Shown here: positions 57,224 through 59,143 of the stretch, piece after piece
Layout of the letters: each line of letters starts with the position of its first letter
Position numbering within the stretch: the stretch's first letter is position 1
Origin: Parcubacteria group bacterium
GTDB taxonomy: Bacteria; Patescibacteriota; Minisyncoccia; UBA10092
Assembly: GCA_016186325.1 (NCBI GenBank)
Contig: JACPLW010000002.1
Coordinates: 1,485 to 65,484 of the forward strand
Direction: 5' to 3'
DNA: 64,000 bases
The notes under the pieces: model-generated
The model's input: only the letters and a program-made list of their open reading frames with translations
Told to the model about the DNA's origin: nothing
Databases searched by the model: none
Program-made: the position numbers and the translations under genes

Positions 57224-59143
57224 ATGGATATTTTTGACGATCTAAACGACAAGCAAATAGAAGCAATAAAAGTTTCCGCGGGGCCGGTTTTAATTTTGGC
57301 CGGCGCCGGAAGCGGCAAAACGAAAACTCTGACTCACAGAATAGCCTATCTTATTTCCCAAGGTATTAGACCGGAAAACATTTTGGCCGTCACTTTCACC
57401 AACAAAGCTGCCGAAGAAATGCGTAGCCGTGTTCAGAAATTGCTAACTACTAACTACAAACTACCAACAACTGACTTATTCATCGGGACTTTCCACAGTT
57501 TCGGAGTAAAAATCCTAAGGGAAGAAATTGAAAAACTGGGGTTTAAAAACAACTTCGTCATTTACGACGAAGACGATACCTTCGCGCTGGCAAAAGACAT
57601 TAGAAGCGAGCTTAATTTTCCACAAGATAAACTGAAGGCCGGAATGCTTCTTAATATAGTTTCCAAATCTAAAAACGAACTGAAAGATCTTGAGGAAGTT
57701 TTAACCAACGAGGGCGAATTGTATAGAAACCGAATTTTGCAATTTGGCGAAATTTATAAACAGCGGATGTCCGCCGCCAATGCCGTTGATTTTGATGATT
57801 TAATAGTTTTGCCGGTAAAAATTTTCCAAAAATTTCCGGAAATTTTAAAAAAATACCAGAACCGGTATCAATACATATTAGTTGACGAATATCAAGATAC
57901 CAATCACGCTCAATATACTCTTGTAAATCTCTTAGCCGACAAATATAAGAATCTTTTTGCGATTGGCGACCCTGACCAGGCTATTTACGGATGGCGGCAA
58001 GCCGATTTCAGGAACATTTTGAATTTTGAACACGATTATTCAAACGCCAAAATAATAAAACTGGAGCAAAATTACCGTTCAACCCAAAATATTTTGTCCG
58101 CCGCCTCCCAAATTATTTCAAAAAATGTTGAGCGCAAGGAAAAAACGCTTTGGACCAAAAATCCGCCAGGCGCGCCTATTGAAGTGACCGAAACGGCTAA
58201 CGAGCGAGAAGAGGCTGAGTTTATTATTAACAAGGTGTTGGATTTAAACAAAAATCTTAACATTGGTCTGGATAATGCCGTAGTAATGTACCGAACCAAT
58301 GCCCAATCGAGAACGCTTGAAGAGGCCTGCCTTTACGCCGGCCTGCCTTATCGGGTTATCGGCGCCGTAAAGTTTTTCCAGAGAAAAGAAATTAAAGACA
58401 TTGTAGCGTTTTTGCGCTTGATTCAAAACTCTGATGATGAAATAAGTTTAAAAAGAGTGGTGGGCATTATGGGTAAGAGGGCTTATGCTAACTTTGAAAT
58501 CGAATTTGAAAAATTAAAAAAAACGGCGAAAACATTGTCGCCGGCTGAATTAATTAAAGCCGTAATTAAAAAAACTAGTTATTACGATTACTTGTCTTCT
58601 AAATTTTCGGGAACGGGGCCCGACGGAGAACCGGAATCCGAATCAAGGATAAAAAACGTCAGGGAACTAATCGGTCTGTCTTTCAAATACGATAAAACCG
58701 AACCAGTTTTGGCACTTTCCGAATTCTTGGCAGAAGCAGCATTGATGACAGAAAATCCCCCACCCTTGGGGAATGCGCTTCGCGCTTCAGAAAAAAATAT
58801 TCCCCAAGGGTGGGGGAGTGAAAAATTAAATTTAATGACGCTTCATTCGGCAAAAGGATTGGAATTTGACGCGGTTTTCATAGCTGGCGCCGAAGAAGGA
58901 TTGATGCCCCATTCGCGCTCGGCATTTTCTTTGGGAGAGCTTGAGGAAGAGCGCCGCCTTTGCTATGTCGGGCTTACACGAGCCAAAAAGTACTTATGGC
59001 TTTCGTTTGCAAAACAACGCTCTCTTTGGGGAGAAAGAAACGAAACCATGCCATCTAGGTTCATAATGGAACTGCCGCCGAGCTTGGTTAATTTTAGGTC
59101 GTTAAGTGACGGCTATAATCTTCCCGAAATTAATTTAGAGTAA
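57224..59143 (+). CDS. pcrA: ATP-dependent DNA helicase PcrA/UvrD
   Basis: Walker A AGAGSGKT; motifs II-VI including TLHSAKGLEFD; contains an extra in-frame insert encoded by an 18-bp inverted repeat. Confidence 0.9.
   Translation: MDIFDDLNDKQIEAIKVSAGPVLILAGAGSGKTKTLTHRIAYLISQGIRPENILAVTFTNKAAEEMRSRVQKLLTTNYKLPTTDLFIGTFHSFGVKILREEIEKLGFKNNFVIYDEDDTFALAKDIRSELNFPQDKLKAGMLLNIVSKSKNELKDLEEVLTNEGELYRNRILQFGEIYKQRMSAANAVDFDDLIVLPVKIFQKFPEILKKYQNRYQYILVDEYQDTNHAQYTLVNLLADKYKNLFAIGDPDQAIYGWRQADFRNILNFEHDYSNAKIIKLEQNYRSTQNILSAASQIISKNVERKEKTLWTKNPPGAPIEVTETANEREEAEFIINKVLDLNKNLNIGLDNAVVMYRTNAQSRTLEEACLYAGLPYRVIGAVKFFQRKEIKDIVAFLRLIQNSDDEISLKRVVGIMGKRAYANFEIEFEKLKKTAKTLSPAELIKAVIKKTSYYDYLSSKFSGTGPDGEPESESRIKNVRELIGLSFKYDKTEPVLALSEFLAEAALMTENPPPLGNALRASEKNIPQGWGSEKLNLMTLHSAKGLEFDAVFIAGAEEGLMPHSRSAFSLGELEEERRLCYVGLTRAKKYLWLSFAKQRSLWGERNETMPSRFIMELPPSLVNFRSLSDGYNLPEINLE

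Follow-up and report, generated by a model that had tools for sequence, protein, structure and literature searches.

A palindromic insert in the pcrA gene of a Parcubacteria genome is probably a copy of a small mobile hairpin repeat

We analyzed a 64,000-nt stretch of DNA from a Parcubacteria group bacterium (contig JACPLW010000002.1 of assembly GCA_016186325.1, positions 1,485 to 65,484; the whole stretch is hereafter the window), whose host lineage, judging from the source names of orthologous proteins, appears to be Candidatus Azambacteria (Parcubacteria, candidate phyla radiation or CPR). One open reading frame (ORF), pcrA/uvrD, encodes a UvrD/PcrA-type superfamily 1 (SF1) helicase (Pfam UvrD-helicase, E = 2.6e-91; Geobacillus stearothermophilus PcrA, E = 8e-153) and contains, in frame, the palindromic element that is our subject and that we call family E together with its relatives. 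Within the window, a longer relative lies at the start of gyrA, and an unrelated AT-rich element lies at the start codon of pcrA itself (Table 1).

The pcrA element is built from two 19-nt arms that pair perfectly across 24 nt, and the sequence around it reads, in order, ATGACAGAAAAT CCCCCACCCTTGGGGAAT GCGCTTCGCGCTTCAGAAAAAAAT ATTCCCCAAGGGTGGGGG AGTGAAAAA. An earlier reading of this DNA made from the sequence alone had noted an inverted repeat of 18 bp inside the helicase ORF; the repeat is present, with arms one base longer than stated, and it exceeds chance, as the arm pattern (≤3 mismatches) has four matches in the window versus 0.04 expected. Two of these matches are the arms in pcrA and two fall at 11464-11595, which agrees with the earlier observation that the arms share the core CCCCCACCCTT with an element in gyrA. 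Exact inverted repeats in general (≥10 nt, GC ≥0.6, within 130 nt) number 13 in the window versus 1.4 in shuffled sequence, a roughly nine-fold excess. The element region is predicted to fold as RNA at −45 kcal/mol (z = −7.0 versus dinucleotide shuffles). On the minus strand, each arm amounts to a small hairpin followed by a T-run, resembling a terminator. We rejected an intrinsic terminator on the coding strand because no T-run lies 3′ of the stem. No Rfam family matches the element, and only tRNAs reach gathering score anywhere in the window.

Comparison with orthologs indicates that the palindrome was added to an existing gene. In the protein the segment appears as LMTE-NPPPLGNALRASEKNIPQGWG-SEKLNLMTLHSAKGLEF (wider context LMTENPPPLGNALRASEKNIPQGWGSEKLNLMTLHSAKGLEF), ahead of TLHSAKGLEF, which in standard nomenclature is SF1 motif V, the later VGLTRA being motif VI; the insert therefore precedes motif V and does not lie just upstream of motif VI, as first described. 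The site is a length-variable linker across solved PcrA and UvrD1 proteins and orthologs. The window PcrA is longer by 15 residues than its closest orthologs, by ~9 than G. stearothermophilus PcrA and by ~3 than Mycobacterium tuberculosis UvrD1, and the original estimate that other helicases are about 12 residues shorter was right in direction, with a figure that depends on the comparator. In a multiple alignment of the best 120 PcrA/UvrD proteins listed (the window's own included), the PPPL..QGWG segment is absent from the other 119/119, and nearly all orthologs listed read ALMQEERKNESGEKLNLMTLH at the insert site with constant length. The closest one listed (P0002, about 88–90% identical), encoded in a syntenic 22-kb locus (L001), reads LMQEERKNESGEKLNLMTLH where the window protein has its 15 extra residues, as do others listed. 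At the DNA level L001 carries the empty site ATGCAAGAAGAAAGAAAAAACGAAAGCGGCGAAAAATTAAAT, versus ATGACAGAAAAT[60 nt]AGTGAAAAATTAAAT in the window. This amounts to a net +45 nt, with 60 nt of palindrome present and ~15 nt of ancestral linker missing or unalignable. This empty site, the orthologs without the segment and an ORF that keeps all helicase motifs establish the proposed in-frame insertion. Two further possibilities were examined and set aside at this site: a target-site duplication, for which the flanks GAAAAT / GAAAAAT are too ambiguous, and programmed ribosomal bypass, rejected because the insert is open and in frame, without a stop after a take-off codon.

Copies of the same element interrupt an unrelated gene in other genomes. 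Scanning metagenomes with a single arm listed at least 120 loci, and the real paired copies among the matches listed are L149 and L179, most others being solo chance matches. Both lie in rsmH, the gene for the 16S rRNA m4C1402 methyltransferase, and these copies of 63–65 nt align over their full length with the pcrA element at 81–84% mean column identity. They also keep a loop core, GC[G/C]CTT[C/G/A]GCG[C/T]TT (GCxCTTxGCGYTT), from a loop that was absent from the search pattern. We accordingly describe family E as elements of 60–65 nt with termini (A)ATCCCCCACCCTTGG...CCAAGGGTGGGGGAT and this loop core. The rsmH copies are oriented opposite to the pcrA copy on the coding strand and nevertheless share the PPPL..QGWG frame because the arms are palindromic. 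Solved RsmH structures (Thermus, Thermotoga) lack these ~25 residues. Both coding insertions, in pcrA and in rsmH, follow CAGAAAA(AA)T, a regularity drawn from two events only. A covariance model built from three short copies recovers the gyrA element at 44.9 bits (E = 8.5e-11), and this match, together with the full-length in-frame rsmH copies, supports the suggestion that pcrA and gyrA carry members of one repeat family. Weaker relatives under the same model are L062, in a marine Patescibacteria genome, and L004, an Azambacteria contig in which the relative lies downstream of pcrA. A scan of a genome collection with the pattern CCCCACCCTTN{20,50}AAGGGTGGGG, for which at least 120 loci were listed, gave one Patescibacteria match among those listed, again L062, the source genome itself not being among them. 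Another candidate, L214, was rejected as native LspA sequence.

Near-identical rsmH alleles differ in whether they carry family E. Clustered at 90% identity, the L149 protein groups with members of 310–311 aa and members of 290–291 aa, and what separates the two lengths is precisely the element: KN[PPPLVNKYKQNAKGSIRQGWG]IKIL versus KNI-IKIL. A filled and an empty allele (P0241 and P0248) are 99.7% identical outside the insert, as are a second pair (P0249 and P0244). Other filled alleles are ~89% and ~71% identical to P0241, and in the most distant of them (L179) the arms are decaying and pairing is being lost. The empty DNA reads GCAAAAAAAAT|ATA|ATTAAAATT (AAAAAAT|ATA|) versus GCAGAAAAAAT|63 nt|ATTAAAATT (AAAAAAT|63 nt|) in filled alleles, such that 63 nt were gained, 3 nt (ATA) were lost and no target site was duplicated. 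This pattern may have arisen through several insertions at a single site, through excision or through an exchange of alleles.

Start codons of two genes in the window are also affected by insertions. The 134-nt gyrA relative begins 5 nt after the ancestral gyrA ATG (11458), and the mini-ORF that runs from this ATG ends at a stop overlapping a new start codon at 11507 (ATGACTAA), which lies inside the element in the gyrA frame. This new start is probably used for translation and would add ~30 residues; the closest GyrA orthologs begin MAE[VI]GY, a start that in L005 and L006 overlaps with the end of a small ORF lying upstream. In the window, this region looks like a translational coupling relay, from ORF82 through the mini-ORF to GyrA. 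The second element, at the pcrA start, is a textbook miniature inverted-repeat transposable element (MITE): it has terminal repeats CCCGTTAGAAAT/ATTTCTAACGGG of 12–14 nt and a flanking 6-bp duplication, ATGGAT (57121-57126, 57224-57229), whose downstream copy supplies the pcrA ATG. It is missing from L001 and L003, and its presence displaces the native ribosome-binding region by ~100 nt. As a separate observation, the intergenic region between a metallo-beta-lactamase (MBL)-fold gene and the small ORF upstream of gyrA in L006 has its own GC-rich insert of ~150 nt (L006:1790-1935), built of GAGCG-type repeats and hairpins.

The pcrA element is one of several hairpin-repeat families in these genomes. 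The few orthologs with extra residues near the PcrA site each carry their own GC-rich hairpin DNA (P0012/L002, P0038/L003 and P0009/L004, the last at a nearby site slightly upstream), and among the orthologs listed none was found in which plain, nonpalindromic DNA encodes a segment of the same length. In L002 the insert (GTCGGGGCTCCGACC-loop-GCGTCGGAG) is a double hairpin that also occurs twice between genes of the window (family B, Table 1), and the arms of the L004 insert, CCCGCCTGCCA/TGGCGGGCAGG, recur in an insert that lies in frame in L002 rsmA. At least two of the other Azambacteria PcrA inserts are clearly related to elements elsewhere, in different genes or between genes. Aligning the window with its syntenic relatives L001, L005 and L006 revealed further window-specific insertions, in an MBL-fold gene, in the polynucleotide phosphorylase (PNPase) gene pnp and in rsmA, with GC contents of 0.70–0.87 versus 0.43 for the window and lengths that are all multiples of three. 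Overall, 6/7 internal coding insertions relative to close relatives are GC-rich (0.56–0.87) and hairpin-forming, the sole AT-rich, unstructured one being 42 nt in a GH3 gene. Here too sequences recur: the core GGCGAGCCTCGCC of the 72-nt MBL-fold insert is also found in the rsmA insert, with a recurring core GGCGAGSCTCGCC in both genes, and the 30-nt MBL-fold double hairpin has a relative in a TrbL-like gene of L001 (~L001:19277-19305). The rsmA insert is followed by a 13-nt near-repeat of its own first 13 nt (63322-63334), and the RsmA protein that contains it is identical in five independent Logan read assemblies, which indicates that such inserts are not artefacts of one assembly. Two observations concern the same genes. 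The rsmA gene of L002 (L002:5480-6376) has two lineage-specific inserts, a basic NSDAQKGRKSDRKRRR near the N-terminus and a palindrome of another family (H) near residue 215. Just upstream of the PNPase coding region of the window, a long hairpin (47563-47625) is kept in L001, where both halves of the stem have changed, and may therefore be a pnp leader or autoregulatory structure.

Table 1. Positions of the family-E copies, their host gene and the other elements discussed (window coordinates unless a locus is named)
Feature	Position	Strand	Remarks
Family-E palindrome, 62 nt	58756-58817	+	in frame in pcrA; translation PPPLGNALRASEKNIPQGWG
Left arm TCCCCCACCCTTGGGGAAT	58756-58774	+	mini-hairpin by itself (CCCC..GGGG)
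Loop GCGCTTCGCGCTTCAGAAAAAAAT, 24 nt	58775-58798	+	inner GCGC-TTC-GCGC hairpin
Right arm ATTCCCCAAGGGTGGGGGA	58799-58817	+	located by repeat finder
rsmH copy	L149:1252-1316		in frame in rsmH; reads NPPPLVNKYKQNAKGSIRQGWG; in context DLSRKNPPPLVNKYKQNAKGSIRQGWGIKIL
rsmH copy	L179:1417-1481		in frame in rsmH; reads SPQSLADKQVSSAKGKIRQGWG; in context KKSPQSLADKQVSSAKGKIRQGWGIKII
pcrA/uvrD, 639 aa	57224-59143	+	motifs I-VI intact; element in variable linker before motif V
Family-E relative, 134 nt	11463-11596	+	termini CCCCCACCCTT..AAGGGTGGGGGAG; AT-rich 96-nt interior
Mini-ORF, 18 codons	11458-11514	+	from ancestral gyrA ATG; stop (11512-11514) inside element
MITE, 97 nt	57127-57223	+	AT-rich; unrelated to family E; at pcrA start codon
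Family-B double hairpin	4789-4858		intergenic; same family as in-frame insert of P0012 (L002)
Second family-B copy	54098-54155		intergenic; in a stretch without L001 counterpart
Multi-hairpin insert, 72 nt, GC-rich	10616-10687	+	in frame in MBL-fold gene 10486-11208; absent from L005 and L006
Palindrome CCCGCAGCTGCGGGG, 15 nt	10801-10815	+	in frame in MBL-fold gene 10486-11208
Double hairpin CCCCCTACGGGGG-AT-CTCCCGCAGGGAG, 30 nt	11166-11195	+	in frame at 3′ end of MBL-fold gene
GC-rich hairpin, 21 nt	47670-47690	+	in frame near 5′ end of pnp; absent from L001
rsmA (ksgA) insert, 33 nt	63289-63321	+	in frame; palindromic core GGCGAGGCTCGCC

Together, these results suggest that the pcrA palindrome is very probably a copy of a small, nonautonomous, mobile hairpin repeat, a selfish coding palindrome that behaves like a Rickettsia palindromic element (RPE). 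RPEs are palindromic repeats that insert in frame into unrelated housekeeping genes, at sites compatible with the protein fold, and are translated as a family peptide (PMC10969869). Family E likewise occurs in frame in unrelated protein genes with a shared peptide, PPPL..QGWG (PcrA NPPPLGNALRASEKNIPQGWG, RsmH NPPPLVNKYKQNAKGSIRQGWG), and the RPE-like behavior proposed by the sequence-only reading is supported by the empty sites, the rsmH copies and the 99.7% identical alleles, the last pointing to gain or loss. RPEs measure about 100–150 bp (PMC10969869), whereas the family-E element is 62 nt long in pcrA, the rsmH copy 65 nt and the gyrA relative 134 nt; RPEs reach dozens of copies per genome, and two family-E copies are seen in the 64 kb of the window. 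Its arms are GC-rich in a 43% GC genome, and its host belongs to the CPR (probably Azambacteria) rather than to Rickettsia. We therefore regard family E as RPE-like in behavior and not as a member of an RPE family, being set apart by size and host.

Other known repeats resemble family E in part. Like MITEs such as Correia/NEMIS, ERIC and RUP, it is short, lacks a transposase ORF, has terminal inverted repeats, would form a long hairpin in transcripts and lies within or beside genes; unlike them, the rsmH copy has no target-site duplication and the pcrA site shows no clear one. The closeness to Correia elements that had been implied does not hold up, since those of Neisseria are ~100–200 bp long, have terminal repeats of ~26 bp and carry an IHF site and a TA duplication (described in part in PMC10969869), whereas family E is much shorter and has neither a TA duplication nor an IHF-type interior. 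Palindromes derived from IS200/IS605 elements and repetitive extragenic palindromes (REPs), with the mosaic elements they form (BIMEs) and their associated RAYT transposases, are similar in being short hairpins whose movement would create no target duplication and of which many unrelated families coexist in one genome. REPs are described as 20–40 nt long, extragenic and tagged with GTAG or CGTC (PMC3733652). The pcrA element differs in being 62 nt long, intragenic and without GTAG, CTAC, CGTC or GACG. AT-rich mitochondrial genomes of yeasts, sponges and placozoans contain GC-rich palindromic clusters or hairpins, some of them in frame in protein genes. These resemble our elements as GC-rich (double) hairpins scattered in an AT-richer, compact genome; they differ in being organellar and without sequence relationship, and some are bypassed by the ribosome, whereas the family-E insert is open.

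Several observations weigh against a mobile repeat in pcrA. Copy number is low where it can be counted, at two family-E copies in the 64-kb window, and the matches listed in the genome-collection scan are almost all unrelated REP-like hairpins of GC-rich taxa. Five open-frame translations queried against ~5.8 billion protein clusters returned one candidate without a score, and the exact variant has consequently not been seen translated elsewhere. A Pfam scan of ten nearby or odd ORFs of the window found no transposase, HUH enzyme or invertase. For the extra PcrA loop, an AlphaFold2 model from a 38-sequence alignment, with a mean pLDDT (per-residue confidence score) of 65 and values <50 at residues 506-639, is unusable. 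The pcrA insertion rests on one assembly, an independent contig covering it having been sought without success. Finally, the net gain in pcrA is 45 nt and not 60, implying either that ~15 nt of target were also lost or that the alignment is ambiguous, and AGAAAAAAAT, within the loop, is similar to the native AGAAAAAAC at the empty site.

We weighed four other explanations, and the homologous copies in other genes, where they are dispensable, speak against each of them. The first is that the palindrome has been selected for a function and is not selfish DNA: as a hairpin in the pcrA mRNA (an RNase III site or an interdomain translational pause), as a minus-strand terminator for the convergent gene at 59144-60223 or as a lineage-specific protein loop. 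The great stability of the stem and the terminator-like arms of the minus strand fit such roles, and RNase III is known to cut Correia elements in mRNAs at their terminal repeats (PMC10969869). A selected function nevertheless seems very unlikely to us given that the segment occurs in 1/120 orthologs listed, that the coding strand has no T-run after the stem, that the same element sits in opposite orientation in an unrelated gene whose filled and empty alleles are 99.7% identical, and that base pairing in the older rsmH copy (L179) is decaying.

A local origin, in which template switching or fold-back synthesis copied the right arm from the left around native sequence, would account for the perfect arms and for the last two difficulties listed above, the 45-nt gain and the native-looking loop; many of the other hairpin insertions are, moreover, tiny (15–33 nt) and hard to picture as transposons. 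Such an event would not place the same arms and loop core in rsmH of other genomes or the same arms at gyrA, and the other hairpin families also recur across genes and genomes, making this origin highly improbable. We consider an intragenic switch, in which the 19-bp inverted repeats let the 24-nt core flip and stop pcrA, extremely unlikely: the reverse orientation does read PPPLGNIFF*SAKRIPQGWG, with a premature stop before motifs V and VI, but recombinase-mediated inversion would have to work on a spacer of 24 nt, which is very short, no invertase was found among the neighboring ORFs tested and membership of a repeat family found in other genes already explains the element. An assembly or amplification artefact in this metagenome-assembled genome (MAG) has about as little to recommend it, for although the exact PcrA is on only one contig and Logan contigs from related runs end before the element, the insert is exactly in frame without a stop, whole-length homologs exist in independent assemblies of other samples, and five independent read assemblies agree on the palindromic rsmA insert of the same genome.

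If the palindrome is a mobile repeat, as we favor, a family-E copy would have landed in the stretch joining domain 2B to motif V, a permissive linker of variable length, where it would be translated as a 20-residue Pro/Gly-rich loop, presumably surface-exposed and harmless. Its survival would follow from the tolerance of this linker, from a net change divisible by three and from the absence of any stop codon, and surviving coding copies in general would be those that are in frame and in tolerant loops. The 19-bp stem in the mRNA may incidentally attract RNase III or slow ribosomes. Family E was presumably moved in trans by machinery that recognizes the hairpin or the termini. The lack of a target-site duplication favors a hairpin-dependent single-strand route (an IS200/IS605- or RAYT-like HUH enzyme) or a route associated with replication or repair, toward which we lean only tentatively, over classical DDE cut-and-paste, which is less likely.

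A broader and more speculative reading, which we regard as quite possible though short of probable, is that a swarm of unrelated, ultra-short elements, hairpins and double hairpins of 15–134 nt, populates the genomes of Azambacteria and perhaps of CPR bacteria beyond them. These would move without target-site duplication by hairpin-specific machinery, repeatedly hit permissive loops of essential genes, be gained and lost between 99.7% identical strains and even take over translation starts, as at gyrA. At least three distinct families would then have struck the 2B-2A region of PcrA, in no fewer than four lineages, and such elements would be among the chief sources of length variation in the proteins of these reduced genomes.

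CPR/Patescibacteria have small genomes in which mobile DNA is usually said to be scarce. The window and its relatives appear to hold tiny palindromic repeat families inserted in the essential genes pcrA, gyrA, rsmH, rsmA and pnp, open-frame and polymorphic between near-identical strains, and would thereby offer a concrete source of lineage-specific loop insertions in CPR proteins. A search of the full-text literature found no paper that meaningfully links RPE-like or MITE elements with Patescibacteria/CPR; in-frame coding palindromic repeats are known from RPEs, and the lineage here is one in which such elements had not been described. It may give a natural system, the second after Rickettsia, in which to study how selfish DNA is accommodated by proteins, and it calls for caution in annotation, alignment and start-codon calling in CPR genomes. 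The filled and empty rsmH alleles, with no target duplication, make the mechanism of mobility testable in existing metagenome reads.

Other repeats and structured regions were observed along the way. One "uncultured bacterium" MAG (L014-L125, contigs CBDUUJ01...) has at least 25 copies of a 64-nt palindromic element, GTA|CCCCACCCTTTAGGGTGGG...CCCACCCTAAAGGGTGGGG|TAC, and a 43–47-nt hairpin, CCCCACCCTTCCCTCCCCCGC..GCGGGGGAGGGAAGGGTGGGG, is common to many Alphaproteobacteria among the matches listed. In the window, a 14–16-nt palindrome, CCCCGCA(A/G)(C/T)TGCGGGG or close variants, occurs at 2768, 15051, 27067, 60299 and 61381, and its copies appear mostly intergenic and terminator-like. Near-identical direct copies of ~120 nt, GC- and hairpin-rich and 2 kb apart (22299-22420 and 24364-24485), flank two small minus-strand ORFs and have no convincing Rfam match. 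The region 6300-7600 has 58% GC versus 43% for the window, long overlapping ORFs on both strands and no Pfam matches, and may be foreign or noncoding DNA. A GC-richer, ORF-poor region of 2 kb with many hairpins (60260-62180) has no Rfam match even at E 0.1; it is 79–81% conserved with L001:12857-13854 and may contain one or more unannotated RNAs or decayed genes. Lastly, at tRNA-Ala(CGC) (39863-39967) and tRNA-Val(TAC) (45111-45209), inverted repeats of 20–21 nt enclose each tRNA and extend the acceptor stem into the flanks.

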